In this document: piece after piece, positions 5,102-49,546 of the stretch
How the letters are laid out: every line of letters starts with the position of its first letter
Position numbering within the stretch: the stretch's first letter is position 1
From: a virus
Lineage: Duplodnaviria > Heunggongvirae > Uroviricota > Caudoviricetes
Virus record (IMG/VR): IMGVR_UViG_3300029702_000002
Reading direction: 5' to 3' (one strand)
Length of the DNA: 64,000 bases
The notes under the pieces: generated by a model
The model's input: the letters and a program-made list of their open reading frames with translations, nothing else
Databases searched by the model: none
Told to the model about the DNA's origin: nothing
Program-made: the position numbers and the translations under genes

Positions 5102-5313
5102 ATTAACACTCCTGATTCTACTAATTGCTGTAGCAATACTTTCCCTTTATCAGTTAACTGGTAGTTGGCCGAACACCACGTTTCAGAAACGTTTGCAACC
5201 AACCCTAAACGCTCTAACTTAGCTCGCGTTTTAGGCTTCCAGTACTCAGGGAACTCCGGCCACTTACTTATTTCATGAAGCGTTTCTTTCTCCCGTTTAC
5301 TTAATACGATCAT
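5098..5313 (-). CDS. Hypothetical protein (71 aa)
   Basis: Translationally coupled to ligase stop. Confidence 0.5.
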   Translation of the reverse strand: MIVLSKREKETLHEISKWPEFPEYWKPKTRAKLERLGLVANVSETWCSANYQLTDKGKVLLQQLVESGVLI

Positions 5314-6632
5314 TCTTTATCTCCGATTCGATCTTCGGTATCGCGTAAGCAACGCGGCCATTTCAGTCGTGGGTGGCGTAAGCTGCCGTCCGGTGTTTTC
5401 TCGTGACAATGAACCTCAACAATACGACCACGGTACTTCTCTTTGTTGTTCCAGATCTCGTCCAGATATTTATGCTTAATACCGCTCGCACGAACGATGA
5501 CGCCGTTTTCAAGACGAATAACAATTTTTCCAAGTGTGTTGGCAAAACCAGAGTCCGGGTCGCCCGGCTCAAAGTCGATAATTTCACCATCTTCTGAATC
5601 TTCGTCTTTTAACTTCCACCAGCTGCGGGTACGTTTAAACTCGTAAACAGAGTTCGGATCTTTGCCCATCTCCCCTTCTTCGTTATCGTCCAGGCGTTTC
5701 ATGAAGCGTTCGATGAAGTCTTCGTGGCTATGGATGATATAGAACGGATGCAGGTGAATGTCTTGTGTGTAGCCTTCACTGCGATCGTTTTTGAACAACG
5801 CCACCAGCATAGCCAGGCGCTCTTTCAGCTTCATACCTGTCTTTGCATACTCTTTGGATTTAGCCTGTGCTCGCCATTCCGGTAGGAAGAAGTCGAAAAC
5901 ATGATAAATAGCGCCAATTGCCTGCACGTTCTTTTTGCGCAATGCAGATACGGACTGGTTAAATGAACCGGCAGTTCCTTCACCATCGAAGAAGATGTGT
6001 TTGTGGCCTGAAAGTTTGCCTAATTCGAGCATGGCTGGCTTTAGGTGATCGAGAGACGTGATTGGATTACCAGTACGAGAAAGGAAGTTAACCTCTTCCT
6101 CGTCAACAATAACCTCGCAAATTACTCGCAAACCATCGAGCTTAAGACTGCCAATCATCGGCCATTTTGCTTTAGGATTTGGCTTGAAGGGGTATTTGTC
6201 GCCTTTTTCTTTATACGGTGACGCCAGCTGCACCTCGAATTTCGGAATGGGATTTTCAAAAACCTTGTTGCATAGGCTAATCCCAACGCCAGCTTTCGGG
6301 TCTTTTAAGAGGAAACGACGGAACACGTCCTGCCCATCGGCGCACATTGACGCCACGATAGACTCAACAGCTGCTATTGCTGCGTTCCCCGTTAGCTCGC
6401 GAGAGGCCAGCTTATTCAGTACATCAATGGCTTTTTCGTCACTTGGGATGGACTCACTAAGCGGCTCTGCCACTTTGTATTTCTTTACCCCAAAACGGAT
6501 GAAAGGGTTGAGCATCAATGAAACCATGCTTTGTTCAAAGTCATCCATGTTGGCCAATGCCTCTTTTTTTGCATTGGTTCCCATAGCTTTCATTTCGTCC
6601 AGCTTATGCTTAAGTGCGATCAACTTTTTCAT
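5310..6632 (-). CDS. ATP-dependent DNA ligase
   Basis: Adenylation motif I KLDGLR, FDGE motif and WWKLK motif V in 440-aa ORF. Confidence 0.8.
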   Translation of the reverse strand: MKKLIALKHKLDEMKAMGTNAKKEALANMDDFEQSMVSLMLNPFIRFGVKKYKVAEPLSESIPSDEKAIDVLNKLASRELTGNAAIAAVESIVASMCADGQDVFRRFLLKDPKAGVGISLCNKVFENPIPKFEVQLASPYKEKGDKYPFKPNPKAKWPMIGSLKLDGLRVICEVIVDEEEVNFLSRTGNPITSLDHLKPAMLELGKLSGHKHIFFDGEGTAGSFNQSVSALRKKNVQAIGAIYHVFDFFLPEWRAQAKSKEYAKTGMKLKERLAMLVALFKNDRSEGYTQDIHLHPFYIIHSHEDFIERFMKRLDDNEEGEMGKDPNSVYEFKRTRSWWKLKDEDSEDGEIIDFEPGDPDSGFANTLGKIVIRLENGVIVRASGIKHKYLDEIWNNKEKYRGRIVEVHCHEKTPDGSLRHPRLKWPRCLRDTEDRIGDKE

Positions 6633-7166: not shown

Positions 7167-7943
7167 TTACCAACTTCCCCAGCTAATCATCTTGCGCTGA
7201 TCGCTTTCTAAGCGATAAGGGGCAAGAAGCTCTGTGACATGATTGGTGGCGTATGATTTAGCCTCTTGCTTAATCATCGGTAATTCGTTAGCAATCCTGA
7301 CCATCTTCCCAGCAAATTCCGCCATTACGCCATCACAAGCCTTCCCCGCATCAACAACGATATGCACAAGATCCAACTGGCTTTTGCACATATCCCAAAG
7401 AGACGCGTATTCACTCTCTCTGATTACATTTACGGCACTATTAGCCCCTTTATTAATCAAAACTTCCAACAGATTTTTCGGGGTAACGAAATCTGCTTTC
7501 AGAGATAATGTCTTTTCACCACTTATCGAACGCAAGTACTCTTCGTAGTTATTCTTCATCAAACCGCTGCTGCGCATTGCTAGAACTGCTTCTTGAATGG
7601 CCGCTTCAATAGTTTCGTCGTTTGAAAGACAAAAAACGGTATTTGTGTAGATCACTCTGCCATCAAGCCATGCTCCAACCTGCACTTTAAGACTGAGCGG
7701 GTTTTCTTTGCTAATAAAAACAACTAATGCAGAACGCCGTGCACAAGAAGGTTCGCCCCATACGTGTAACTCAACTTTCAGATAAGGCAACCCTGGTAGC
7801 GGGATCTCGTCCATACGAGCAGCGATATGATTCATTGCTGTATTGACGGCCTTTCCAATGATGTCTAGTCGACTGCCCTCGCTGATTTCTAAACCTGTTT
7901 TATCAATGATGTCACAGGCCAATTTCTGAATTTCGTCTTTCAT
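7167..7943 (-). CDS. Hypothetical protein (258 aa)
   Basis: First gene of leftward operon 7943 to 4662. Confidence 0.55.
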   Translation of the reverse strand: MKDEIQKLACDIIDKTGLEISEGSRLDIIGKAVNTAMNHIAARMDEIPLPGLPYLKVELHVWGEPSCARRSALVVFISKENPLSLKVQVGAWLDGRVIYTNTVFCLSNDETIEAAIQEAVLAMRSSGLMKNNYEEYLRSISGEKTLSLKADFVTPKNLLEVLINKGANSAVNVIRESEYASLWDMCKSQLDLVHIVVDAGKACDGVMAEFAGKMVRIANELPMIKQEAKSYATNHVTELLAPYRLESDQRKMISWGSW

Positions 7944-8068
7944 ACCAACTCCTAGCTAACAGATGAAAGTATTCTTACAAAAAACTAAGTATGTATCTAC
8001 TTATCATTTTAGGCGCAATAGTTCCCTATACGAAGATGCCGGGCTTATAGTCTGCCCGGCATTCACCA

Positions 8069-8482
8069 TTAATGAGCTACAGCCTCACTGTTGCACATCT
8101 TTCTGTAGACCTGCTTATAACGCTGTAAGTCATGAGGATCATTAGGTGCCAACGACTTCGATAGGATTTTGTATACCACCCCTTTCGAAAACATGCCCTT
8201 TGGCTTCATTTCGAGTTCAACAACATATGAGTGATAGCCCACGTATGCACCAAAGCCATTTTTGGCGTTTAATTCACCACACACAAAGCCTGTCACACTC
8301 CCATCGTCATGATCAGTCCTGACAAACTTATCTTTCCTAAACATCACCGACGTGGGATCTTTCATGTCATCCGCAATGGCCTGTTGGCCCAGAGTAATAG
8401 CCTTCTCGTCTGTAGGCTTACACCCAACTAATGCAAACAAAGACAATAAAGCACCTGTTAAAATCAGCTTCTTTTTGCTCAT
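8069..8482 (-). CDS. Lipoprotein (137 aa); candidate superinfection-exclusion/lysogenic conversion protein
   Basis: Signal peptide with lipobox LVGC; isolated gene with own hairpin. Confidence 0.6.
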   Translation of the reverse strand: MSKKKLILTGALLSLFALVGCKPTDEKAITLGQQAIADDMKDPTSVMFRKDKFVRTDHDDGSVTGFVCGELNAKNGFGAYVGYHSYVVELEMKPKGMFSKGVVYKILSKSLAPNDPHDLQRYKQVYRKMCNSEAVAH

Positions 8483-8714
8483 TTTGACTTCCCTTTATTT
8501 ATATTTATCGTAGGTATTAGTTAACCAAAACACGAGCAGTGTCACAATAATTCCATAACTTATTATTTCCACTAGTGATTAATACCACATCAACTTTACG
8601 GTTCATAAATTAAATTATCAAAGCTGACAGATTAACTAAATTTAAGTACCCTTTTCGCACACTTGACGCTTGCCGCGTCTAAACTGTTCATCCTATATCA
8701 ACAGAATAAAAAAC

Positions 8715-13521: not shown

Positions 13522-14289
13522 ATGGACGATTTATCGGTATACGCGAGATCATTGGATAAGGCTAAATACTATGTTTACTGTCTCTATGATACAGAAGACA
13601 AGATGAAAAGACCGTTTTACATAGGAAAAGGCAAATCGACTCGTTGTCTCGATCACATCAAGTATCCCGATGACTCTCCCAAATCCATGCGGATCAAAGA
13701 ACTTTTGGCTAATAAAAAATTAGGCATAGATATACTTCGTCATGGTATGGATGAAACCACAGCCAAACTTGTTGAGGCGACATGCATCGACCTTATGGGG
13801 GTCGGAGAGCTTACGAATAAGGTACGAGGAAGTGGTTCCATGATGGGCAGAATATCACTGGACGCCTACCATCACTTAGTGCTGCAAGAGGAAACTGAAA
13901 TTGCTCCTGAGCACGCCGGTCTTGCCTTCCTGCTAAACAGCACCTACAAGTCAGGAATGTCCGCTCTGGCATTATATGAAGCTACGCGTGGCGTATGGGC
14001 AAAGGTTCCAAGAGACGAGAATCTCAAATATGCCTACGCTACATATGGTGGGCTGATAATGGAAGTTTATCAGATTGAATGCTGGGTCAAAGCCGGTTCT
14101 CAGCAGTACTTTACAAGGGATATAGCTCTTGGCCCCGACACAAAACGTTATGAATTTGTTGGCAGAATAGCCGATGAGCATATTAGAAAACTGTATGTAG
14201 GCAAATTAATCAAGAAGCCACCAAGCTACGGTAGCCCTTTTGTGAAGGTTGGGGTGGTTAGGACTGAACATAGTGTTAGCGCGGCATAA
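13522..14289 (+). CDS. GIY-YIG nuclease domain protein (free-standing, 255 aa)
   Basis: N-terminal YYVYCLYD...PFYIGKGKSTRCLDH matches GIY-YIG catalytic motif; lone plus-strand gene in minus-strand region. Confidence 0.7.
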   Translation: MDDLSVYARSLDKAKYYVYCLYDTEDKMKRPFYIGKGKSTRCLDHIKYPDDSPKSMRIKELLANKKLGIDILRHGMDETTAKLVEATCIDLMGVGELTNKVRGSGSMMGRISLDAYHHLVLQEETEIAPEHAGLAFLLNSTYKSGMSALALYEATRGVWAKVPRDENLKYAYATYGGLIMEVYQIECWVKAGSQQYFTRDIALGPDTKRYEFVGRIADEHIRKLYVGKLIKKPPSYGSPFVKVGVVRTEHSVSAA

Positions 14290-14341: not shown

Positions 14342-14701
14342 TTAACCTTTCTTCATCAACTCTCGTTTGATTTCATCGGTACGCATCGTGACATCGGCAG
14401 CGGTGATCGCCTCATTCAATTTCACGATGTCCTCGATTTCCTGCGGTGACTTCTCTGCCAGATGGAAAATGGCTGCTCGAATCACGTCAGAACGAGTGAA
14501 CTTCTCGAAGCGAGGGATGAACTTCATCATCTCCAGCAGTTCGAAGTATTCGTCCTCCAGTGACATTGTGCGGCTTTTAATTTTCTCTTTGCCACGAGTC
14601 GGGCGTCCCTGTGGTCTGACTGGTTGGCGCAAAGGAGTTGTGTTCTTAGCCGGTGCATCAGGCTCTTTGCGCTTTGCTAGGTCACCCATTTTCATGGACA
14701 T
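14342..14701 (-). CDS. ParG-like small partition protein (basic N-terminal tail, putative ribbon-helix-helix C-terminus)
   Basis: 119-aa ORF translationally coupled (ATGA) to ParA-like gene. Confidence 0.5.
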   Translation of the reverse strand: MSMKMGDLAKRKEPDAPAKNTTPLRQPVRPQGRPTRGKEKIKSRTMSLEDEYFELLEMMKFIPRFEKFTRSDVIRAAIFHLAEKSPQEIEDIVKLNEAITAADVTMRTDEIKRELMKKG

Positions 14702-15369
14702 TATTCTTCTTCCTCCAGACTCAACAGATAATCTACAAATTCTTCAAACTCGGCTTCCGCCTTTTTGTCGCGCTCGCTACCGGTCATTTCAAAGATAGAA
14801 CGACCAGACTCTTCCGCATCATCATAGACGTTGCGGTTATATAGATTGACTGGCGCAGACTCGATTCCAAACGTCTCAACAATCTCTTTAGCCGCCAGAA
14901 TGCGAGACACTTGTGATGGCAAAGCCGGGCACTGGTTCATGACCGCGCGGACCTTCACTTTATCGTTTACATTGCGAACATTGTCGATAATAGGATCGAT
15001 GTCACGTAAAGATTTCAAATCACGACGCTTAGGACGCAGCGGGATAATGATAACGTCAGCCATCAGCATCGCTTGTCGCTGAATTTCGGAGTCGAAGCCA
15101 CCAGCATCTACCACTACAAACTCAGCTCTACCCTGAAGCGATTTTAGGTGCTTAATGATGTCATCCTGAACGTATGCAAAAGGAATCAGCTCCAGGTCTT
15201 CGTTCTGTCGACGGTCTTCACACCAGCTCGTTGTCGTGCGCTGAATATCTATATCGGTAATATAAACCTTCTTCTTCTTTTTGACTTTCAGGCAAACGGC
15301 AATTTGCTGGGCAACGGTGGATTTGCCAGGCCCGCCCTTTGTGCCGCCAACCACAAAGATCTTGGTCAT
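14701..15369 (-). CDS. ParA/MinD-family partition ATPase
   Basis: Deviant Walker A KIFVVGGTKGGPGKST at N-terminus, 222 aa. Confidence 0.85.
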   Translation of the reverse strand: MTKIFVVGGTKGGPGKSTVAQQIAVCLKVKKKKKVYITDIDIQRTTTSWCEDRRQNEDLELIPFAYVQDDIIKHLKSLQGRAEFVVVDAGGFDSEIQRQAMLMADVIIIPLRPKRRDLKSLRDIDPIIDNVRNVNDKVKVRAVMNQCPALPSQVSRILAAKEIVETFGIESAPVNLYNRNVYDDAEESGRSIFEMTGSERDKKAEAEFEEFVDYLLSLEEEE

Positions 15370-42645: not shown

Positions 42646-43902
42646 CTATCGAGAACCACCAAGAATAACACGGTTTTTGACTGGATACCTACGATGTACT
42701 GGATAGCCCAATGCGTCTGCACTATGCTCAATGCCACCTGTCTTATCCATATCTCGTGTTCCAGGCTTGTAGATGACTTTTTCCAGTGAATCAATCAAAT
42801 GCTTGCACTTCGGATCGATATACAACCGGATATCTCCAGATGCGGTCATCAGCATTCGGTTAACAGCATTAACACGATCCGCAATTGGCGGGTGCTTTTT
42901 CGAATAATCGACACGTAAGAATCCCTTCTCTTTGAATATGTCGACGTCAGACTCCCCGCGAGCATGTTGGCGATAAGCACCTGCCGGATCTGGAAATACC
43001 GTTATCTGTGATTTCCAGCGCCAGAAGCGTCTCTCAAGCTCATCACAAACCTCTGCCGTGTTAGAGGAAAAGAGCACCAATTCATCAATTGCCCATAGCT
43101 CACCATTTGGCTGAGGTTGCAAAATTACTGAAGACATCGGGTCAATGTTGAAGTCCTGCCCTACCCATATAGGCAACCGAGGGTTGAACTGAAGCGGTTT
43201 TACATGCACGTTACGATCGAACGGGTAGTAAACGCGCCCGGACATGTTCTCAAAGCTCGCCAGGTACTCCTGAGCGAACGATTTCGGGTCCATATCGTTC
43301 TTAGCAGCTTCAATTTCCGCCGTAGGCACAAACGGAGAATCGGCAGTTACAAACTGCCAGCTCTTCCACTGTCCCTTTCTTTGCAGCTCTACGTTCTGGC
43401 CTATAGTCCACAGTTTGTGAAATTCCGAGAAACCTTTTGGCGTACCAATGATCAGTGCACCGCCGCGTGTCGATGAAAGAGTAGGTCGTAACACCTTGTA
43501 CCAGGTGTCAGCCTTCATATCCTGAAATTCATCAAGCACTACAAAATGCAACGCTACGCCGCGCAGAGTGTCAGGCTTATCAGCACCTTTGAGGGCGATC
43601 TCCGAACCGTTCTTCAACACGATTGTCATCGTGGTGTCGTTCTTTTTCCTAACCCACTTACGAGGCAGAACTTCCTGTAGATCGTCCCACAAAATCTGGC
43701 GAGCCATCTGGTAAGTAGGAGCGACATACCAGACCCTTTGCTTTTTTTCCTTTGCCGCCGCACGAATAATAGTGGAGATCGACAACCGGGATTTTCCCCA
43801 GCGTCGACCAGCACAAACAACTTTAAATCGATGCGGAGACTGGAAGACTTTCATCTGTCCAGAATGCAGTTGCACAAGACTGAGCGAGGACGGGATTGCC
43901 AT
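42646..43902 (-). CDS. Terminase large subunit
   Basis: N-terminal Walker A VVCAGRRWGKS, ATPase + nuclease two-domain size, overlaps terS stop. Confidence 0.9.
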   Translation of the reverse strand: MAIPSSLSLVQLHSGQMKVFQSPHRFKVVCAGRRWGKSRLSISTIIRAAAKEKKQRVWYVAPTYQMARQILWDDLQEVLPRKWVRKKNDTTMTIVLKNGSEIALKGADKPDTLRGVALHFVVLDEFQDMKADTWYKVLRPTLSSTRGGALIIGTPKGFSEFHKLWTIGQNVELQRKGQWKSWQFVTADSPFVPTAEIEAAKNDMDPKSFAQEYLASFENMSGRVYYPFDRNVHVKPLQFNPRLPIWVGQDFNIDPMSSVILQPQPNGELWAIDELVLFSSNTAEVCDELERRFWRWKSQITVFPDPAGAYRQHARGESDVDIFKEKGFLRVDYSKKHPPIADRVNAVNRMLMTASGDIRLYIDPKCKHLIDSLEKVIYKPGTRDMDKTGGIEHSADALGYPVHRRYPVKNRVILGGSR

Positions 43903-44534
43903 TATTCGTCCTCCCCTTCACTTCCATCATCTGTCGCATCAAATTCGCTTAGAGCTTCTTCTTCCAACGTCTCAAGCAATTCGTCATCGATGATTTCAGG
44001 CTCGTCGTCTTCCTGACGTAATTTCGCCACCTGGGAAGGCGTAAGCTCACCAAATACCAGGTTCGGAATTTCTTCCTCGTCATTTTCCGCATGATCCATG
44101 CCCAATGCTTTGGACGAAACTTCAAAGCATTTTGCAAGGGTATTACTGGCTCTCTGTAAGCTCTTGAGAGAATCCTCAATCGCCCCTAAAGGCTTACCCT
44201 CACGTTTGGCCGTAGTGACTTCGACCATCACCATCTGCCCCAACGCATACGCCCAGCCGTCATAACGTGTACGACGTTCTTCTATCTTTTCCGCACGGGC
44301 TTTAGCGCGAAGCTCTGCGTCAGATTTAAGAGACTCACGAACCATCTTCCCAACAGAGTCCGCGCCTTTCTCTAATCCTCGCTTTTTGAAATGTCTGGAG
44401 AGTGTTTCACGACGAATGCCGTACTCTTCCTCCAGCTTTGAGAGTGTATATTCGCCTGACGTCCATTTGGCTTCAGCTTCGGCCCACTCCGCTGGTGTCA
44501 GGCGAGTTTTTACCTCGTCTTTTTCGACCGTCAT
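43902..44534 (-). CDS. Terminase small subunit
   Basis: N-terminal HTH-like region, acidic C-terminal tail, immediately upstream of terL. Confidence 0.7.
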   Translation of the reverse strand: MTVEKDEVKTRLTPAEWAEAEAKWTSGEYTLSKLEEEYGIRRETLSRHFKKRGLEKGADSVGKMVRESLKSDAELRAKARAEKIEERRTRYDGWAYALGQMVMVEVTTAKREGKPLGAIEDSLKSLQRASNTLAKCFEVSSKALGMDHAENDEEEIPNLVFGELTPSQVAKLRQEDDEPEIIDDELLETLEEEALSEFDATDDGSEGEDE

Positions 44535-44651
44535 AGATCCCTCTAAAACACACAGAGCGCGTCCATGCGCTCTAAAACAACTTGTTTACTGCATTTTCTA
44601 ACCAACTTGTTTTCTGGGTTGTTTAATTAGGTCTGGGCATGTCTTATTAAG

Positions 44652-44706
44652 CCTGCTTCCGTATATATTTAATAAGTTACTTATTATTTATATATACAGA
44701 AGCAGG
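44652..44706. repeat. 55-bp AT-rich near-palindrome, copy 2 (identical to 13356-13410), about 120 bp upstream of terS
   Basis: Exact 55/55 identity to copy 1. Confidence 0.9.
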
Positions 44707-44730
44707 TCTTTAAATAAGCTCCCAGACCGA

Positions 44731-44997
44731 TTACATCACCAGTAACTTCGCTTTGGCTCGACCTAAAGTGGTTAACCCAAGAGTTCGGCGGTGATAGCGA
44801 TTGTCACTGCGTTGGCGCGTATGCCCTTTCTCCACAAGCCCCTTTTTTATCAGAGCGCGAATTGAGAACTGGATACTTTGCTTGGTTGTCTTGTACGGCA
44901 AAACTTCAAGCAATTCGTCCAGATCAAGTAGATGACCTCGCTCATAACCGAGATTGAGCGTTTTGATGATGTCCTTTTGTTTATCGGTTAACGTCAT
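44731..44997 (-). CDS. Small putative DNA-binding protein (88 aa)
   Basis: AAGGA site; basic C-terminus; last gene of ParB/ATPase/GNAT operon. Confidence 0.45.
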   Translation of the reverse strand: MTLTDKQKDIIKTLNLGYERGHLLDLDELLEVLPYKTTKQSIQFSIRALIKKGLVEKGHTRQRSDNRYHRRTLGLTTLGRAKAKLLVM

Positions 44998-45006
44998 GGC
45001 AAATCC

Positions 45007-45897
45007 TTATGCCGGTAAAGCAATTTCTAACGGTTTATCCAAAGGTTGTTTGTCGAATGCCAGCAGTGGCAGCGTGTCAGGCAGTCGACGACCAAAGTCA
45101 GGGTTTCGATACACCCCATACAACGGAGACGTAAAGCTCAGGTTGTGAATGTCCTTGAGCAACTTCACAATGCTGGCCTCGTCCACCAGACTGTCGGCAA
45201 TGTCCTGAATCGTCGTGCCACGATTCCGCCCAGCTTTTGCCAGGGAACTGTTCTTATGGTAGTCCGCCACCAGATCACGCAGTGCACGGCGACGACGAGA
45301 CTCGCTCATTGCGAACAACTCTTTGACGATCGCCTCGTTATCACCCGGGTCGGAACGAAAATGGCGCTGGAATACACGCAGTGCACTTTCATAGCTCTTC
45401 GGTCGCTCAGGGCGGATGAACTTAAACCCTGCTTTCATGGCGAAGGGATTGTATTTGCTCATCGAGGACTGGATCTCAATGATTGGCCGGTCATGCATCC
45501 TGCTAACCAGGTTAATCATTCGATAAGAGACGCCTACGCCACGATACTGAGTATCCACAACTGAGCGACTGATCACCGCAAAGTTGTTATTCACGTACCG
45601 ACCCCAGTACTGGTTAGCCACGGTGGTATTAGTGGTTGGTTTCAACTTAGGAAACATGCGGTGGCGAGGTGCCAACAGTAGTTTCGGGTAAGCCATAACC
45701 ACGACGCCCACCAGACGGTCATCAAGTTCGCAGCGATAGTAAGTTGGCGCGAAAGGTTTGCCGTCTGTTTTGTAGTGAAGCGACTTAAGAGCGTGCCAGT
45801 CCTCTACAGTTCCCTTTGTAACAGTCATTCGCTCCAGAAAGTCCAGATGACGCGGAAACTCTTCAGGGCGGTAGCGTTTAATGATGATGTCCGTCAT
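45007..45897 (-). CDS. GNAT-like acetyltransferase-fold protein with C-terminal extension (296 aa)
   Basis: VVDTQYRGVGVSYRMI resembles GNAT motif A (Q/R-x-x-G-x-G/A); 4-nt overlap with upstream ATPase. Confidence 0.45.
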   Translation of the reverse strand: MTDIIIKRYRPEEFPRHLDFLERMTVTKGTVEDWHALKSLHYKTDGKPFAPTYYRCELDDRLVGVVVMAYPKLLLAPRHRMFPKLKPTTNTTVANQYWGRYVNNNFAVISRSVVDTQYRGVGVSYRMINLVSRMHDRPIIEIQSSMSKYNPFAMKAGFKFIRPERPKSYESALRVFQRHFRSDPGDNEAIVKELFAMSESRRRRALRDLVADYHKNSSLAKAGRNRGTTIQDIADSLVDEASIVKLLKDIHNLSFTSPLYGVYRNPDFGRRLPDTLPLLAFDKQPLDKPLEIALPA

Positions 45898-46559
45898 GAA
45901 TGGACCTCATCATGACTACCATTGTGATATTCCACCTTCACGCGTTCTTTGTAGTGCTTGGTGATCTGCATATCCGGGCGCAGCGCGTTCTTCAGGTCTT
46001 CGTGAGTCGTCGCCACCATTACCGTCGCACCAACCTTTCGCGCGGCACGCTGGAGGTTAGACGCCACAACCTGAGCGGTTACACGGTCGAGAACAGCGCC
46101 GAACTCGTCAGCAGCCCACACTTTAGCGCCTGACTCAATCAGTTTGGCAATCTTGAGACGATATTTCTGGCCGTCTGACATTTCAGAAGGCTTGCGAACA
46201 AACAGATATGCATCGTTCAGACCAGCCATAGATAACAACCCAAGCGCATCACTGGTCGTTTTGCCCAACTGATCGATGACGTTAACCTCATTATCGAAGG
46301 TAAAATCATCGATGGAGGCTACAGACAGCCCTTCATCCTTCATCTGTCGTTGCAACTCGCGCAGCACAACGGATTTGCCGGAACCGGATTGGCCGGTGAT
46401 GTACACCACATCGCCCTGCTTCACTTCCAGCTCCAGATTGTCGTAAAGCGTCCACTCTTTTTCGTCCAGGCCAAGCCCGAACGACTCAGCGATTTCCAAC
46501 GTGCGCGTGGTTTTATTTACGCGTGTCTGAAACGATATGTTGATGATGTATTTGCTCAT
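45894..46559 (-). CDS. ABC-type ATPase (single nucleotide-binding domain, 221 aa)
   Basis: Walker A GQSGSGKS, signature-like MSDGQKYR, Walker B VWAADEF, H-loop TTHE. Confidence 0.7.
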   Translation of the reverse strand: MSKYIINISFQTRVNKTTRTLEIAESFGLGLDEKEWTLYDNLELEVKQGDVVYITGQSGSGKSVVLRELQRQMKDEGLSVASIDDFTFDNEVNVIDQLGKTTSDALGLLSMAGLNDAYLFVRKPSEMSDGQKYRLKIAKLIESGAKVWAADEFGAVLDRVTAQVVASNLQRAARKVGATVMVATTHEDLKNALRPDMQITKHYKERVKVEYHNGSHDEVHS

Positions 46560-47224
46560 GCAGCCATCTCCCCGGAAGAGATCTTCTCCGCATATGCCAC
46601 AAATGCGTCTACCCCGCTTTCTCCCGTCATTTCTTCCATATGGGCAAGCAAATCACCAACAACAATGGCAGAGCCAGCAGGGAGCGTTTTAAAGCCCAAT
46701 ACGTCGACAACACGTACTTCTTCCGCTGCAACTTCACGACTGATCTCGGTGTGTTCATCCTTCTGTCGTTTAGTTTCTTCGCCAAGATCGATAACTAGCG
46801 AGTCGGTGTCCATTTCTTCTGTCATACTGCCAACGAGAACATTCAACTCACGCTCTTCAAAGCCGAAAACCTCGATATCGTCCAGAACAAGCGACTCAAG
46901 CTCTTTCTGTAGCTTAATTGCATCGTAATCAATGCTGGCAAGTCGGTTATCTTCAAGGCGCTTCGCACGAACCTCGTCATCACTGAGATCATCGCGAACA
47001 ATAACCGGTACGCGCTCAAGTCCAGCAAAAATTGCAGCCTCACGGCGGCCGTGGCCAGTAATAATTACGTCGTTCTTATCGACCGTAATTGGCTGGTCAA
47101 ATCCGCGCTTTTTAATGGCTGCGGCCAGATCTCGGATCTGCTGTTCATCATGCTTTTTGGCATTCATCTCATAGGGAATAAGATCTGCCGGGTCGCGATA
47201 TACGATTTCAAACTTTTTGGTCAT
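46556..47224 (-). CDS. ParB-like nuclease domain protein
   Basis: ParB N-terminal motif ITGHGRREAA; start at ATG 47224 overlapping upstream stop. Confidence 0.65.
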   Translation of the reverse strand: MTKKFEIVYRDPADLIPYEMNAKKHDEQQIRDLAAAIKKRGFDQPITVDKNDVIITGHGRREAAIFAGLERVPVIVRDDLSDDEVRAKRLEDNRLASIDYDAIKLQKELESLVLDDIEVFGFEERELNVLVGSMTEEMDTDSLVIDLGEETKRQKDEHTEISREVAAEEVRVVDVLGFKTLPAGSAIVVGDLLAHMEEMTGESGVDAFVAYAEKISSGEMAA

Positions 47225-47922
47225 TACATACGCTCCTTGTAGTAGTCGACCAGCCACACCAGAGCCTCACCAGCGTTCTCCATTTCATTACCGGTGTTAA
47301 TAGCCTGCTCTTTGATGATGTTTTTTATGGTTTCTGCAACACGATCTGACGCATCGAAAGTTACTTTGAAGCGCATGGTCTGATGTTCCGCACCCACACG
47401 TTCGGTTTTCTCTCGTTTGTCGGTATCGACAGGCTCATCACTACCACGAGACAACGCCTCCAGTGCTTCAAGGTCGATTGCCGCCTCTTTTGCTAAAACC
47501 ATCGAGATTTCGTCGTCATACGGGGCGATTTCAGACAGTTGATAGTCAAGTTCTGACTGAATTTCTTCAATGAAGCGTTGCAATGCGATTTGGTCGTCTT
47601 CACCGTATCGCTCGTTGTCCACCAGTGACATCTGTTTAGCTACGACATCGCTAATTTTGCCCACAGAAAGCACCGGAACCGTTGAAATTCCTTGCTCAAT
47701 AGCAGCACGCCAGCGATGTTCGCCGCCGAGGATTTCAAAAAATCCATCTTCAAGTTCACGAGCCAAAATTGGCTTAAAAAAGCCCAATTTTTCGATAGAA
47801 CCTTTCAGTTTTTCAAAATTCTGCGCACCAACCGAATTGGTGTTCCAGGTATTCGGGCGAAGGTTGGCAACATCAACCTGCAAAATCGTGATTTTTACAT
47901 CCATTTTATTGCTACAATCCAC
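47224..47922 (-). CDS. ParB-like nuclease domain protein
   Basis: ParB N-terminal motif ILGGEHRWRAA. Confidence 0.65.
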   Translation of the reverse strand: MDCSNKMDVKITILQVDVANLRPNTWNTNSVGAQNFEKLKGSIEKLGFFKPILARELEDGFFEILGGEHRWRAAIEQGISTVPVLSVGKISDVVAKQMSLVDNERYGEDDQIALQRFIEEIQSELDYQLSEIAPYDDEISMVLAKEAAIDLEALEALSRGSDEPVDTDKREKTERVGAEHQTMRFKVTFDASDRVAETIKNIIKEQAINTGNEMENAGEALVWLVDYYKERM

Positions 47923-47986: not shown

Positions 47987-49546
47987 ATGACTGTTCGGAT
48001 TGTATCTAACGCAGTTAATGCGCTTATTTCTGGCGCAGATGACAAGGTAAAGCAAATGGTGCAACAGATGTTGAGCTACGAAGTCGAGACTGGCGACTGG
48101 AAGGGCACAAGCACGATGTTCAACTGGAGTAAAAACTCGTTCCCTGCTGGCTTTGCCAAGCCTGTAGCGGCGAACTTGAACAAGGCGGGCATCAAATGTG
48201 TTCATATCCGCAAAGACAAAGCCCCGGCGCTTGGTAAACCAAATCCGGCGGTTAACCCATTCCCATACAATCCTGATTATGCGTATCAGGATCAGACTGT
48301 GGAAACACTGGTTCGAGAGGGAATGATGATTGCGCAGATCGCTACTGGTGGCGGGAAATCTAACGTTGCCTGCAAAGCAGCTGCACGTATCGGTCGAATG
48401 ACATTATTTTTAACAACCCGCTCTGTTCTGATGTTTCAAATGGCCGAAAACTTCCAGAGATCCATCGACTACCGCGCCGAAAATGGCGAACCGTGGTTAA
48501 AGGGCCAAAAGGTTGGAGTCATTGGCTCGGGTGAGTTCCAGGTATCACGACATATCAACGTCGCTACAGTTCAAACTCTGGCAAGTTTCCTTGAAGAACC
48601 ACCACGCGATGCAACACCAGATAAAAAGAGCTACCACCTCAAACGTCGGGAGTTGGTGAAACGCTTCCTTTCAAGTGTGTCTCTGCTTATTCTGGAAGAA
48701 GCGCATGAGTCTTCAGGCTCTAATTTCTATGACATTGCCAGATTATGTGTGAACGCAGACTATCGTCTGGCGCTTACAGCCACGCCGTTCATGAAGGATT
48801 CGACGGAAGCCAACATGCGCCTGATGGCGGTGGCCGGGCGAATTGAAATTAAAGTCACAGAAAAGTACCTGATTGATCGAGGCATTCTGGCAAAGCCGTA
48901 CTTCCTTTATCATAAAGTTGCCTACAAGCCAGACGAGGCCAGAATCAAGGCCGAACTTGCCAACAAACACCTCAATTTTAGAGTTGGTATGAGCACCGCC
49001 TACCAAAAGGCTTATCAGTTGGGGATCGTGTATAATTTGGGACGTAACGAGGCCATAGTGCGCGAGGCATTGCTTTATAAGCAACATTCACTCAACTGCA
49101 TGACTCTGGTTCGTCTTAAACGCCACGGGCAAATCCTGATGGAGATGATGAAGGAGTCAGGTCTTAAAGTTGATTTCATCTATGGGGAATCTAACCAGAC
49201 GACAAGGCAAGCAAAGCTGAACAGTTTAGCGTCTGGAGAAATAGATGTTTTAATAGGCTCGACTATTCTGGATGTCGGTGTTGATGTGCCAAGCGTTGGT
49301 GCGGTCATTCTTGCTGGTGGTGGGAAAGCAGAAGTTGAAATGAGGCAGCGTGTCGGTCGTGGCTTACGAGCCAAAAAAAATCAGGCAAACGTGTGTTTTA
49401 TCACTGATTTCATTGACATTAGCAACAAATACCTGTTGTCTCACTCTTATGAGCGAAAACACATCATCGACACCACACCTGGCTTTGCAGAAGGTGTATT
49501 GCCTATTGATGGAGCATTCGATTTTGGAGTTCTGAAACGAGATTAG
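47987..49546 (+). CDS. Superfamily 2 DNA helicase (DEAH box)
   Basis: Walker A ATGGGKSN, DEAH-like LILEEAHE, C-terminal helicase domain motifs. Confidence 0.8.
   Translation: MTVRIVSNAVNALISGADDKVKQMVQQMLSYEVETGDWKGTSTMFNWSKNSFPAGFAKPVAANLNKAGIKCVHIRKDKAPALGKPNPAVNPFPYNPDYAYQDQTVETLVREGMMIAQIATGGGKSNVACKAAARIGRMTLFLTTRSVLMFQMAENFQRSIDYRAENGEPWLKGQKVGVIGSGEFQVSRHINVATVQTLASFLEEPPRDATPDKKSYHLKRRELVKRFLSSVSLLILEEAHESSGSNFYDIARLCVNADYRLALTATPFMKDSTEANMRLMAVAGRIEIKVTEKYLIDRGILAKPYFLYHKVAYKPDEARIKAELANKHLNFRVGMSTAYQKAYQLGIVYNLGRNEAIVREALLYKQHSLNCMTLVRLKRHGQILMEMMKESGLKVDFIYGESNQTTRQAKLNSLASGEIDVLIGSTILDVGVDVPSVGAVILAGGGKAEVEMRQRVGRGLRAKKNQANVCFITDFIDISNKYLLSHSYERKHIIDTTPGFAEGVLPIDGAFDFGVLKRD

Follow-up and report, generated by a model that had tools for sequence, protein, structure and literature searches.

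The window analysed here, a 64,000-nt stretch of DNA, is an SSU5-like phage-plasmid, and between positions 44731 and 47922 it carries a cassette of five genes, all on the minus strand. In the direction of transcription, these genes encode a ParB-like protein (ParB1, 47224..47922; Pfam ParB_N, E 3.3e-13; phrog_723, E 2e-79), a second ParB-like protein (ParB2, 46556..47224; ParB_N, E 1.3e-8; phrog_930, E 1e-112), a stand-alone ABC-type NBD (45894..46559; Pfam ABC_tran, E 5.8e-13), a GNAT-like protein (45007..45897) and a small basic protein of 88 aa (44731..44997; phrog_900, E 1.9e-45). ParB1 and ParB2 overlap by 1 nt (TAATG), the ParB2-ABC and ABC-GNAT junctions are both 4-nt overlaps (ATGA), and the small gene follows the GNAT gene after a spacer of 9 nt. 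The five proteins belong to the PHROG families 723, 930, 293, 886 and 900 (E 1.9e-45 to 1e-164), and the GNAT-like protein has 341 homologues; together with the Pfam matches, these results indicate that the five ORFs are real genes and not chance. ParB1 has two candidate starts, GTG 47922 and ATG 47904, of which the Cyrano annotation uses the latter. The gene calls of the preliminary description were thus confirmed, and its domain assignments (two ParB N-terminal domains, an ABC NBD, a GNAT and a small DNA-binding protein) held up. The motifs on which it had relied, namely GxxRxxA in both ParBs, Walker A and B, the signature MSDGQ and the GNAT motif-A-like stretch VVDTQYRGVGVS of the GNAT-like protein, were all located in the proteins, the last of them as quoted.

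On one side, the cassette is flanked by a divergently transcribed gene for a UvsW/DEAD-type helicase (47987..49546, plus strand; Pfam DEAD, ResIII and Helicase_C), which adjoins ParB1 in every member of the lineage. On the other side, a gap of 196 bp (44535..44730) separates it from the packaging genes, that is, a putative small terminase gene (terS-like, 43902..44534, minus strand; phrog_867, E 2e-100) and the gene for the large terminase subunit TerL (42646..43902, minus strand; Pfam Terminase_6N, E 3e-9, and Terminase_6C; phrog_10250 and phrog_2). The putative TerS has an HTH at its N-terminus and an acidic C-terminus, its gene is translationally coupled to that of TerL, and the position of the terS-like gene is kept in all relatives compared. 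The gap contains an imperfect palindrome of about 99 bp, a tandem repeat with a unit of 25 nt and a terminator-like hairpin immediately ahead of the terS-like start, and it is at this gap that the SSU5 and Cyrano records were opened. A consensus scan of the 196 bp found no sigma-70-like promoter, and the terS promoter at which the preliminary description ends the operon is putative.

The ABC protein has all the catalytic motifs of its family (Walker A GQSGSGKS, signature MSDGQ, Walker B VWAADE), the histidine of ATTHEDL aligns with the H-loop on reading the alignment, and the matches in the PDB are ABC NBDs. Its partner is the GNAT-like protein and not a membrane protein. The latter consists of a basic GNAT domain of the acyl-CoA type (about residues 1-165) and a helical C-terminal domain (166-296) with no assigned fold. 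The AlphaFold2 model (pLDDT 87.4) has the alpha/beta fold of GNATs, and motif A reads R119-G-V-G122-V-S, in which R119 and G122 (the CoA-pyrophosphate motif) are invariant across 37 sequences. The best match in curated Pfam, Acetyltransf_10 (E 0.037, 14.4 bits), was below the cut-off of 23.6, and NCBIfam yielded no match; the distant relatives gp86 of Jace and gp50 of the Oenococcus phage pass the curated GNAT cut-off. RefSeq and PHROGs call the GNAT-like protein an "ABC transporter ATP-binding subunit", a misnomer that arose by annotation transfer.

The two proteins correspond to the N-terminal and C-terminal halves, respectively, of fused ABC-GNAT proteins, for which we obtained 884 profile matches and at least 2179 fused homologues whose N-to-C order is that of the two window genes. 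In the profile search, the GNAT part was located at about residues 200-480 of proteins of 450-500 aa with an N-terminal ABC_tran domain. An hhalign comparison of the GNAT-like alignment (A1) with that of the fused family (A2) gave 99.9% and an E-value of 2.4e-31 over 256 columns; the motifs of the ABC protein closely match the A2 consensus, which carries R-x-I-G-L-G at GNAT motif A. In the window the two halves are encoded by separate genes and are not a single polypeptide, and the same split is found in Oenococcus phage unk162. An intein was observed within the ABC domain of one fused homologue (P0165).

The small protein is probably a winged-helix protein with a putative DNA-binding function, as suggested by weak matches to wHTH families (NCBIfam Sta1/Lrs14, E 0.003-0.004; Pfam LexA_DNA_bind, E 0.07; PADLOC CARF-associated wHTH, E 4.5e-5). 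In the lineage of SSU5-type phages its gene always comes after the GNAT gene, and orthologues with 17-43% identity are present at six distant loci.

Both ParBs consist of a ParB/Srx N-terminal domain (predicted to bind NTP in ParB1), an acidic linker and a conserved C-terminal segment (beta-alpha-alpha in ParB1) that has no Pfam match. ParB_N is above the Pfam cut-off in both, and GxxRxxA (Box II; GEHRWRA at residue 67 of ParB1, GHGRREA at residue 57 of ParB2) as well as a downstream motif of the type D/E-N-x-x-R are conserved in the orthologues. Invariant residues are G67/H69 (GG[EQH]HR) and D102/N103/G107 in ParB1 (alignment A4) and G57-H58-G59-R60, R89 and N93 in ParB2 (alignment A5). ParB1 matches Spo0J (1vz0, E 2.6e-9), with poor alignment through the HTH region, and resembles the ParB domain of a ParB-ABC-GNAT fusion (P0367, E 3e-11). 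The closest non-self families of ParB2, a type known fused to phage DNA methyltransferases, are ParB-methyltransferase fusions (phrog_498, E 1.7e-31; PADLOC MTase_II, E 2.9e-17). Both proteins are very acidic (net charge −18 for ParB1 and −22 for ParB2, with a range of −12 to −34). Neither contains an HTH domain according to Pfam and NCBIfam, and the ParA-interaction motif [LFI]G[KR]G[LFI] is absent from both. According to a passage in Kaljevic et al. (PMC12704722), the nucleotide specificity of ParB folds is not reliably predictable by sequence analysis or AlphaFold 3.

Databases currently annotate the cassette as plasmid partition or ABC transporter genes, as the product names in RefSeq, PHROG and GenBank show, and in the phage-plasmid literature these ParBs are listed under partition, or parB serves as a marker for SSU5 (PMC7969092; bioRxiv 2025.09.12.675607). 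We consider this reading highly improbable. The neighbours of the ParB genes are the helicase gene and the ABC gene, with no adjoining ParA, and the identical synteny recurs in lytic, non-plasmid phages and in one integrated prophage. The window has its own ParA-type ATPase with a coupled small ORF (14342-15369; the ParA/MipZ-type gene is 14701-15369), located 30 kb from the cassette, which makes partition very unlikely. These observations, together with the acidity of both ParBs and their lack of a ParA motif and an HTH, bear out the earlier rejection of plasmid partition. An ABC transporter was likewise rejected, because neither the cassette nor those of the relatives include a gene for a cognate transmembrane permease and because thousands of homologues have the ABC domain joined to a GNAT in one polypeptide.

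With the gene structure, folds and motifs established, the distribution of the cassette can be considered. It is a syntenic core block in the lytic relatives nickie, RHEph10 and BUCTxx99 (about 110 kb), where it is inherited together with the head and packaging genes, with about 40% identity between phages of alpha- and gamma-proteobacteria. In RHEph10, a Tad2-like anti-defence gene is inserted within the cassette. The arrangement of ParB followed by ABC-GNAT, fused or split, next to the terminase also recurs in unrelated phages, namely those of Actinobacteria (Gordonia Axumite, Rhodococcus Jace), Spirochaetes (Leptospira LE4) and Firmicutes (Oenococcus unk162). Among archaeal-virus loci, TerL is directly upstream of ABC-GNAT in 46 of 80 and in 52 of 80 (about 60%, Bathyarchaeial proviruses). 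In these proviruses ABC-GNAT comes straight after TerL with no ParB; the partnership with ParB is therefore not universal, and no link is tighter than that to the terminase. Non-viral archaeal elements carry ParB-ABC-GNAT as well, with methyltransferase, R-M and prim-pol genes alongside and no terminase. In addition, there are triple fusions of ParB, ABC and GNAT (P0310, P0317, P0337 and P0367) and fusions of a family-B DNA polymerase with ABC-GNAT (PolB-ABC-GNAT; P0181 and P0205). Judged by sequence comparison, the cassette is one copy of an uncharacterised family whose members adjoin the terminase in many viruses of bacteria and archaea.

Several of these loci include accessory enzymes that differ by lineage and make or tailor amine-acyl groups. 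Jace encodes an aspartate decarboxylase (PanD; E 2e-33) and a CoA-transferase III, plausibly a route to a beta-alanyl-CoA donor, and Axumite encodes a formyltransferase (Formyl_trans_N). In Firmicute prophages, Amidoligase_2 follows ABC-GNAT in all six loci, and GGACT was detected in four of the six. An ASCH gene was observed near the cassette of an Oenococcus phage, a single case. All members of the family have a basic GNAT half (net charge +15 in the window, median +9 in the split form, +10 to +27 in the fused form), which fits a polyanionic acceptor.

The terminase linkage can be read in terms of packaging itself. The cassette would then encode an accessory complex in which the ParBs, as NTP-gated DNA clamps or nickases, and ABC-GNAT help TerS/TerL to recognise or process the ends of the genome or to start packaging, with the GNAT either acetylating a packaging protein or having no more than a regulatory role. 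We regard this reading as unlikely. Accessory nucleases (HNH) adjoining the terminase are a well-established precedent. The linkage is tight and recurrent in proteobacterial, actinobacterial, spirochaete and Firmicute phages and in archaeal-virus loci, but the window has a separate TerS-like gene coupled to TerL, the non-viral archaeal elements have no terminase at all, and adjacency to a terminase is also typical of bona fide DNA-modification clusters (PMC13229309). Inheritance as a core block with the head module (about 40% identity), the position next to the large palindrome at which the SSU5 and Cyrano records open and the frequent occurrence of the ABC-GNAT gene as the last gene on viral contigs (31 of 80 loci) agree with a packaging role; an acyl-CoA motif accompanied by PanD/CoA-transferase, formyltransferase or amidoligase, in contrast, would be senseless for a purely structural function, and the PolB fusions point toward replication instead.

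If the cassette acylates a substrate, this could be a protein or a polyamine. The ParB and PolB fusions would supply the DNA tether for an acetyltransferase acting on DNA-bound proteins (nucleoid proteins, archaeal chromatin proteins or TerS/portal) or on counter-ions, which would clear or condition the DNA for packaging or serve host takeover, and the occurrence in bacterial and archaeal viruses alike is in line with such a role. However, the strongly basic GNAT half of every member is unfavourable for HU, histones, Alba or polyamines. Protein acetylation would not usually involve custom donors, for example the putative beta-alanyl-CoA, or tailoring by formyltransferase or amidoligase, and there is no candidate substrate gene whose occurrence tracks that of the cassette. 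We rate this explanation as rather unlikely. RNA as the acceptor appears quite improbable. In this case, the cassette would encode an ATP-dependent RNA or tRNA acyltransferase, similar to TmcA/NAT10 or the GNAT toxins, that acts on RNA of the host or the phage and so reprogrammes translation late in infection. TmcA, a tRNA cytidine acetyltransferase, also combines an ATPase with a GNAT, a basic GNAT suits RNA as well as it suits DNA, and the Formyl_trans_N neighbour in Axumite is annotated as tRNA-related. The constant partners are nonetheless DNA-associated (the ParB fold, the PolB fusion and the terminase and helicase neighbours), and Pfam and NCBIfam detected no RNA-binding domain (THUMP, PUA, etc.) in the five proteins. 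ASCH proteins strip ac4C from nucleosides and tRNA (PMC6972931; bioRxiv 10.64898/2026.02.27.708502), but the association with ASCH is one case only.

The ParB and PolB fusions, the lineage-specific donor and tailoring enzymes, the basic GNAT and published ParB precedents make DNA modification the best-supported reading. Specifically, we propose that the cassette encodes an acyl-CoA transferase, gated by ATP and assisted by ParB, by which phage DNA is acylated ahead of packaging; we put the chances of this proposal at close to even, though just short of it. The products (the ABC NBD, the basic GNAT with its helical C-domain, the ParBs and the winged-helix protein) would form one multi-protein enzyme. 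ABC domains of all ABC ATPases dimerise on ATP, and here dimerisation could position or activate the GNAT domains, with the ParB-like proteins activating the enzyme or holding it on duplex DNA. The GNAT would then use a CoA thioester to acylate an exocyclic base amine, yielding N4-acyl-C or N6-acyl-A. In the window phage the group would probably be acetyl, a guess, since no donor-synthesis genes are present. The location directly upstream of terS/terL would fit a modification timed just before packaging, so that the incoming DNA would be shielded from host nucleases. Several points weigh against DNA acylation. GNATs usually acylate proteins or small amines, and exocyclic base amines are poor nucleophiles; both ParBs are acidic and have no recognisable DNA-binding domain, and how they would touch DNA is not evident. 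The cassette has been inherited vertically as a core block, whereas DNA-modification genes are more often patchy accessories, and in the literature searched no modified base was reported for SSU5-type phages, Nickievirus or other carriers. On the other hand, DNA thymine dioxygenases need phage ParB-like proteins that lack a DNA-binding domain for their activation on dsDNA, and terminase genes rank among those most often found next to such modification genes (PMC13229309). The recurrence of the cassette beside the terminase in unrelated phages, the closeness of ParB2 to ParB-methyltransferase fusions and the Tad2-like insertion in RHEph10 also speak for modification. Phage ParB folds are commonly fused to DNA methyltransferases (PMC12704722), and a summary in PMC12839542 describes DpdB as a ParB-like ATPase that is needed for base insertion by DpdA.

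The DNA-modification or anti-restriction function suggested in the preliminary description has thus become the best-supported hypothesis after the comparative analysis, although what was observed is the gene structure, folds, motifs, homology to the fused proteins, synteny, terminase linkage, accessory genes and charge pattern, from which we infer that the proteins form a complex, that DNA is acylated, by which chemistry, and how the phage benefits. Its further suggestion of a defence role, in the sense of an anti-phage system, was not upheld: PADLOC returned no real match but only generic P-loop matches and the ParB part of MTase_II models, and none for the GNAT-like protein. Its statement that the combination matches no known system is correct insofar as we found no description of the cassette in the searchable literature, but the parts do belong to a COG2401-type family and to PHROGs 293 and 886. 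More tentatively, and with some doubt, the cassette might be the founding case of a widespread, hitherto unrecognised viral system of DNA acylation, in which a GNAT driven by the ATP of the ABC domains and assisted by ParB attaches N-acyl groups to the amines of the bases shortly ahead of packaging. SSU5-type phages would use acetyl, and other carriers beta-alanyl, formylated or amidoligase-tailored variants. If true, natural DNA modification would gain a new chemical class, common to bacterial and archaeal tailed viruses.

Among known systems, ParABS shares with the cassette the NTP-binding fold of the ParB N-terminus and GxxRxxA (Box II-like), but the cassette lacks an adjacent ParA, the ParA-binding motif and the HTH/parS-binding domain, and it is present in lytic phages. 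True homologues are the COG2401-type proteins ("ABC-type ATPase with predicted acetyltransferase domain"), to both halves of which the window proteins align; these are fused proteins, whereas the cassette form is split into two translationally coupled genes. Mom of phage Mu (PDB 8bv8) is a DNA adenine methylcarbamoylase with a GNAT fold, but it has 12% identity and no sequence-level family relationship to the cassette GNAT, it acts alone, without an ATPase or a ParB, and its ncm6A chemistry need not apply to the cassette. TmcA/NAT10 are NTPase-coupled GNATs for structured nucleic acid (RNA cytidine N4), and the shared concept is an NTPase plus a GNAT acetylating an exocyclic base amine with acetyl-CoA and ATP. 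They differ in their helicase-like ATPase (an ABC NBD in the cassette), RNA substrate, tRNA-binding domain and lack of a ParB, and no homology to the cassette was detected beyond the GNAT fold. The ParB-methyltransferase fusions and the 7-deazaguanine DNA modification system Dpd (DpdA/DpdB) likewise pair a ParB/Srx-fold NTPase with a DNA-modifying module (PMC12704722, PMC12839542), which is a methyltransferase or transglycosylase domain there and would be GNAT plus ABC ATPase here. In the 5mYOX/ParB dioxygenase systems (O'Toole et al., PNAS 2026, PMC13229309), as in the cassette, a short ParB (NBD and CTD, no obvious DBD) lies beside the enzyme; there the ParB is needed for post-replicative base modification of dsDNA, and the clusters are often near the terminase. 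The partner in those systems is a Fe(II)/2OG dioxygenase instead of an ABC ATPase and a GNAT with two paralogous ParBs, and for the cassette enzyme we infer the action on DNA, but its ParB architecture and the adjacency of ParB and enzyme fit the 5mYOX/ParB pattern.

The five genes that the preliminary description had placed in one leftward operon are all present on the minus strand, with exactly the boundaries it had assigned to them. In the order of transcription, they encode ParB1 (47224-47922; Pfam ParB_N, E 3e-13; PHROG 723), ParB2 (46556-47224; ParB_N, E 1e-8; PHROG 930), an ABC nucleotide-binding domain (45894-46559; ABC_tran, E 6e-13; PHROG 293), a 296-aa GNAT-like protein (45007-45897; PHROG 886), and an 88-aa protein (44731-44997; PHROG 900). 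The PHROG matches are full-length, with E-values down to 1e-164, and the profile searches of each protein show that these are real genes; the motifs quoted in that description were likewise all found in the cassette proteins. Because consecutive genes overlap by 1, 4, and 4 nt, followed by a 9-nt spacer, the five genes very likely constitute a single translationally coupled transcription unit. The start of ParB1 is ambiguous, GTG at 47922 (232 aa) or ATG at 47904 (226 aa): the SSU5 CDS has the length of the 232-aa version, and the Cyrano annotation gives 226 aa from the ATG. The longer ORF leaves only 64 bp to the start of the divergently transcribed DEAD/UvsW-type helicase gene on the upstream side. 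On the downstream side, a 196-bp gap is followed by a TerS-like gene (phrog_867), TerL, and the portal gene.

The gap itself (44535-44730) contains an imperfect palindrome of about 99 bp (arms 44630-44668 and 44690-44728, inner 16-nt arms 44662-44677 and 44679-44694) and, before the terS-like gene, a tandem 25-nt repeat (44575-44624). It is within this palindrome, at about 44669/44670, that both SSU5 and Cyrano are opened in GenBank, and the palindrome could have a regulatory function or serve as a cos/pac site. On the minus strand, a GC-rich, terminator-like hairpin with its T-run (44553-44574) ends about 20 nt ahead of the terS-like ATG, which suggests that either the five-gene unit terminates here or entry into the late operon is controlled by antitermination.

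Sequence identity of the region is 98-99% with Escherichia phages CMS-2020a, PhiR41_1, and Cyrano and 85% with Salmonella phage SSU5; therefore, the window represents an SSU5-type phage-plasmid. The database names of the five genes are 'ParB-like partition protein' (twice), 'ABC transporter', 'ABC transporter ATP-binding subunit', and 'hypothetical', and in publications on phage-plasmids, ParBs of this kind count as partition genes or serve as SSU5 markers (PMC7969092; bioRxiv 2025.09.12.675607). These names and this usage speak for plasmid partition or ABC transport, but such a role is contradicted by several tests and is highly improbable. Both ParBs lack the ParA-interaction motif and a detectable HTH (Pfam, NCBIfam, and motif check), and they are strongly acidic across all orthologues, with net charges from −12 to −34. 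The ABC domain is not accompanied by a permease at any locus. Furthermore, a separate ParA/MipZ-type ATPase (222 aa; the counterpart of SSU5_033) is encoded 30 kb from the cassette together with a translationally coupled 119-aa ORF (14342-15369, minus strand), and this pair is likely to be the true plasmid partition locus. A GIY-YIG (LEM-3-like) ORF adjoins it on the opposite strand (13522-14289, plus). Ribbon-helix-helix domains were suspected in the beta-alpha-alpha segments conserved at the C-terminal ends of ParB1 and ParB2, but nine of these segments showed nothing of the kind in Pfam scans and are left unassigned.

A first IMG/VR scan matched only near-identical SSU5-type loci. Homologues of the GNAT-like protein with about 40% identity are present in phages of about 105-120 kb infecting Pseudomonas (nickie and relatives), Rhizobium (RHEph10 and relatives), Stenotrophomonas, and Xanthomonas. 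The gene order in these relatives is the same throughout, namely helicase (divergent), ParB1, ParB2, ABC, GNAT-like, a protein of about 90 aa, a gap, TerS-like, TerL, and portal, and it recurs in relatives from metagenomes and genomes, among them a prophage that is integrated in a contig of 3.3 Mb; it is interrupted only by small variable ORFs. From this identical order, it follows that the cassette is a vertically inherited core block of the phage lineage. Some of these relatives were isolated as free virions, and no plasmid genes were seen in them. Synteny, the missing ParA motif and HTH, and the distant ParA all bear out the earlier view that the cassette does not serve plasmid partition.

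Several relatives carry insertions between the ABC and GNAT genes: a 183-aa ORF without a Pfam match in Klebsiella phage-plasmids (locus L002, 7374-7925), a Tad2-like anti-Thoeris protein in RHEph10 (locus L004, 5393-5695; E 5e-23), and Phage_gp49_66 and RyR-domain ORFs in an Ectothiorhodospira contig (locus L090, 8961-9999). The cassette tolerates such moron insertion, with its parts all retained.

By sequence, the GNAT-like protein gave only a marginal GNAT match (Pfam E 0.037). Searches of the PDB with the protein or its profile returned nothing meaningful (AlkD at E~1, a myosin chimera at E 0.26), and NCBIfam contained no match for it or for the TerS-like protein. In an alignment of 37 diverse members, R119-x-x-G122 is invariant (YRGVGVSYR) and matches the CoA-pyrophosphate loop of GNATs; HYK, RH..FP, and EIQSSMSK.N.FA..AGF are further invariant blocks. 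A profile search of 1.84 billion representatives retrieved 884 relatives. Outside the phage family of about 300 aa, most of these are proteins of 450-500 aa with an N-terminal ABC nucleotide-binding domain and a C-terminal half corresponding to the GNAT-like protein of the window. This fused family is named 'ABC-type ATPase with predicted acetyltransferase domain' (JGI), and the Cyrano record uses the COG2401-style name 'MK0520'. Profile-profile comparison aligned the GNAT-like protein with the fused family over 256 columns, including the helical C-domain (99.9% probability, E 2e-31), and the ABC protein of the window has motifs that agree closely with those of the fused family. Because both halves are homologous to the fused proteins, the overlapping ABC and GNAT genes represent one enzyme encoded in two pieces, which follow each other in the N-to-C order of the fused proteins. 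The name 'ABC transporter ATP-binding subunit', which phrog_886 and RefSeq attach to the GNAT-like protein although it has no ABC domain, was evidently transferred from the fused proteins.

The fused ABC-GNAT homologues number at least 2,179 and come from Firmicutes and, above all, Bathyarchaeia/Thermoproteota. Among them, P0310, P0317, P0337, and P0367 are ParB-ABC-GNAT triple fusions of about 630 aa, with a ParB part that resembles ParB1 (E 3e-11, GEHR motif in common) and not ParB2. Other unusual architectures among the distant homologues include a family-B DNA polymerase at the N-terminus (P0181 and P0205), an intein with a LAGLIDADG endonuclease within the ABC domain (P0165), and a TFIIB repeat at the C-terminus (P0154), with locus L097 (5111-7486) assigned to the same group. 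The GNAT half is basic in every member, with a median net charge of +9 in the split family and +10 to +27 in the fused family.

The same combination was found in cultured phages of other phyla. Gordonia phage Axumite encodes a ParB-like protein (gp1), ABC+GNAT (gp2), a formyltransferase domain (gp3), and the terminase (gp4), and in Leptospira phage LE4, ParB_N (gp14) and ABC+GNAT (gp15) are followed by three small ORFs, TerL, and portal. Rhodococcus phage Jace has ParB_N (gp85), ABC+GNAT (gp86), an aspartate decarboxylase (PanD, gp87; E 2e-33), and a CoA-transferase III (gp88; gp87-gp88 at 7601-8712 of locus L181), with TerS nearby. Oenococcus phage vB_OeS_unk162 (locus L182) encodes ParB_N, ABC, a separate 128-aa GNAT, and, at the genome end, an ASCH-domain protein (5124-5504). 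Thus, ParB, ABC, and GNAT beside the terminase recur across unrelated bacterial tailed viruses. In Firmicute prophages, Amidoligase_2 follows ABC-GNAT in Desulfofarcimen, Pelotomaculum, Thermincola, Fredinandcohnia, and two IMG/VR contigs, and GGACT is present in 4 of the 6 loci; the four loci checked for TerL all have it downstream, with an SPP1-type portal next in the two that are annotated.

ABC-GNAT beside TerL also recurs in archaeal viruses. Of 80 loci from reference genomes, almost all of them bathyarchaeial and often with several in one genome, 51 were found by unsupervised ORF clustering to encode, immediately before ABC-GNAT and in the same orientation, a protein of about 470 aa (median gap 83 bp); this protein is a large terminase by Pfam. 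A direct TerL search placed TerL on the same strand in 53 of these 80 loci and directly upstream in 46. Of 80 IMG/VR loci, 52 have TerL directly upstream, and ABC-GNAT is the last gene on the contig in 31. Tail-tube, HK97-gp10-like, and baseplate genes are located further upstream in the archaeal proviruses, in which no ParB accompanies TerL-ABC-GNAT. ParB-ABC-GNAT fusions are found in archaeal non-viral elements, beside N6/N4 methyltransferase, type I R-M, and prim-pol genes. Single Bathyarchaeial MAGs (L099-L178) contain several separate TerL-ABC-GNAT loci, for example on five contigs of one isolate, pointing to multiple related tailed proviruses in one genome.

The accessory enzymes vary by lineage. 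Queries with ASCH, PanD, CoA-transferase, and formyltransferase found no further copies among 160 archaeal or viral loci; therefore, these are lineage-specific, not general partners. In Jace, PanD yields beta-alanine, which CoA-transferase III could convert to beta-alanyl-CoA, a ready donor for the GNAT, and the two plausibly form a self-contained route; amines or gamma-glutamyl amides are the substrates of formyltransferase, amidoligase, and GGACT. All of these enzymes make or tailor amine or acyl groups, as would be expected of a pathway in which a small acyl group is attached to a common acceptor and then elaborated. ASCH proteins hydrolyse N4-acylcytosines (PMC6972931), so that the neighbour in unk162, a single case, hints at N4-acyl-cytosine.

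Altogether, the fusions, the terminase adjacency, the accessory enzymes, the basic GNAT half, and published ParB precedents lead us to favour, tentatively and at somewhat less than even confidence, a ParB-assisted, ATP-gated acyl-CoA:DNA acyltransferase that is made just before packaging and confers an anti-restriction or DNA-conditioning benefit. The ABC domain has all catalytic motifs, the GNAT has an intact acyl-CoA site, and the fusion makes their coupling obligatory; coupling to ParB (by adjacency and fusion) and adjacency to the terminase are recurrent, and coupling to DNA polymerase is occasional. The GNAT would transfer an acyl group from a CoA thioester to phage DNA, gated by ATP and helped by the ParB proteins. 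Since genes for making a donor are absent from the window, the simplest assumption is a common one such as acetyl-CoA. A DNA-tethered acetyltransferase of proteins or polyamines would be in keeping with ordinary GNAT chemistry, but it fits poorly with custom donors and with the basic enzyme surface, which makes a polyanionic acceptor more likely than basic proteins or polyamines, and we consider it quite unlikely. TmcA is an ATPase-coupled GNAT able to acetylate an exocyclic base amine, and Mom modifies DNA with a GNAT fold. The analogy with TmcA would extend to RNA or tRNA as the acceptor, a slim prospect given that the partners are DNA-linked.

For the ParB proteins, there are close precedents. 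Post-replicative thymine dioxygenases depend for their activation on dsDNA on phage ParB-like proteins that have no DNA-binding domain, and the genes concerned have terminases among their commonest neighbours (PMC13229309). Phage ParB folds typically occur as fusions with DNA methyltransferases, and GTP is bound by one ParB-acetyltransferase fusion (PMC12704722). DpdB, according to the summary in PMC12839542, is a ParB-like ATPase needed by DpdA.

Three observations count against DNA acylation and leave some room for a packaging-accessory role, which we regard as unlikely: a modified base is known for none of the carriers in the literature searched, the cassette is inherited as a core gene block along with the head module, and its tightest partner in archaeal viruses is TerL rather than ParB. 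Of the functions proposed in the preliminary description, DNA modification or anti-restriction is thus the one tentatively retained on comparative grounds, whereas defence is not, PADLOC having assigned no defence system to the cassette.

Confirmation of the chemistry would establish a new class of natural DNA modification. Genes labelled 'partition' and 'ABC transporter' in common clinical Enterobacterales phage-plasmids (SSU5/pHCM2 type) would be mislabelled, the cluster of the GNAT-like gene alone having over 1,000 member sequences; as a DNA-modification or anti-restriction machine, the cassette would bear on the spread of these elements and their passage across restriction barriers. The newly recognised partnership of ParB-fold proteins with DNA-modifying enzymes would extend to a second, unrelated chemistry. 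The predicted mass shifts are +42 Da for SSU5-type phages and +71 Da for Jace, and these phages are already in culture. Even without a DNA target, a conserved terminase-linked ATPase-acyltransferase common to bacterial and archaeal Caudoviricetes would be unexplained virus biology. The protein families are catalogued (PHROGs; COG2401-type name) but unstudied, and, in line with the initial failure to match the combination to any known system, full-text literature searches turned up nothing that describes the cassette, its link to the terminase, or the accessory enzymes, although an earlier comparative-genomics mention is possible. Relative to known systems, the cassette would best be described as a form of ParB-assisted DNA modification with a new catalytic module.
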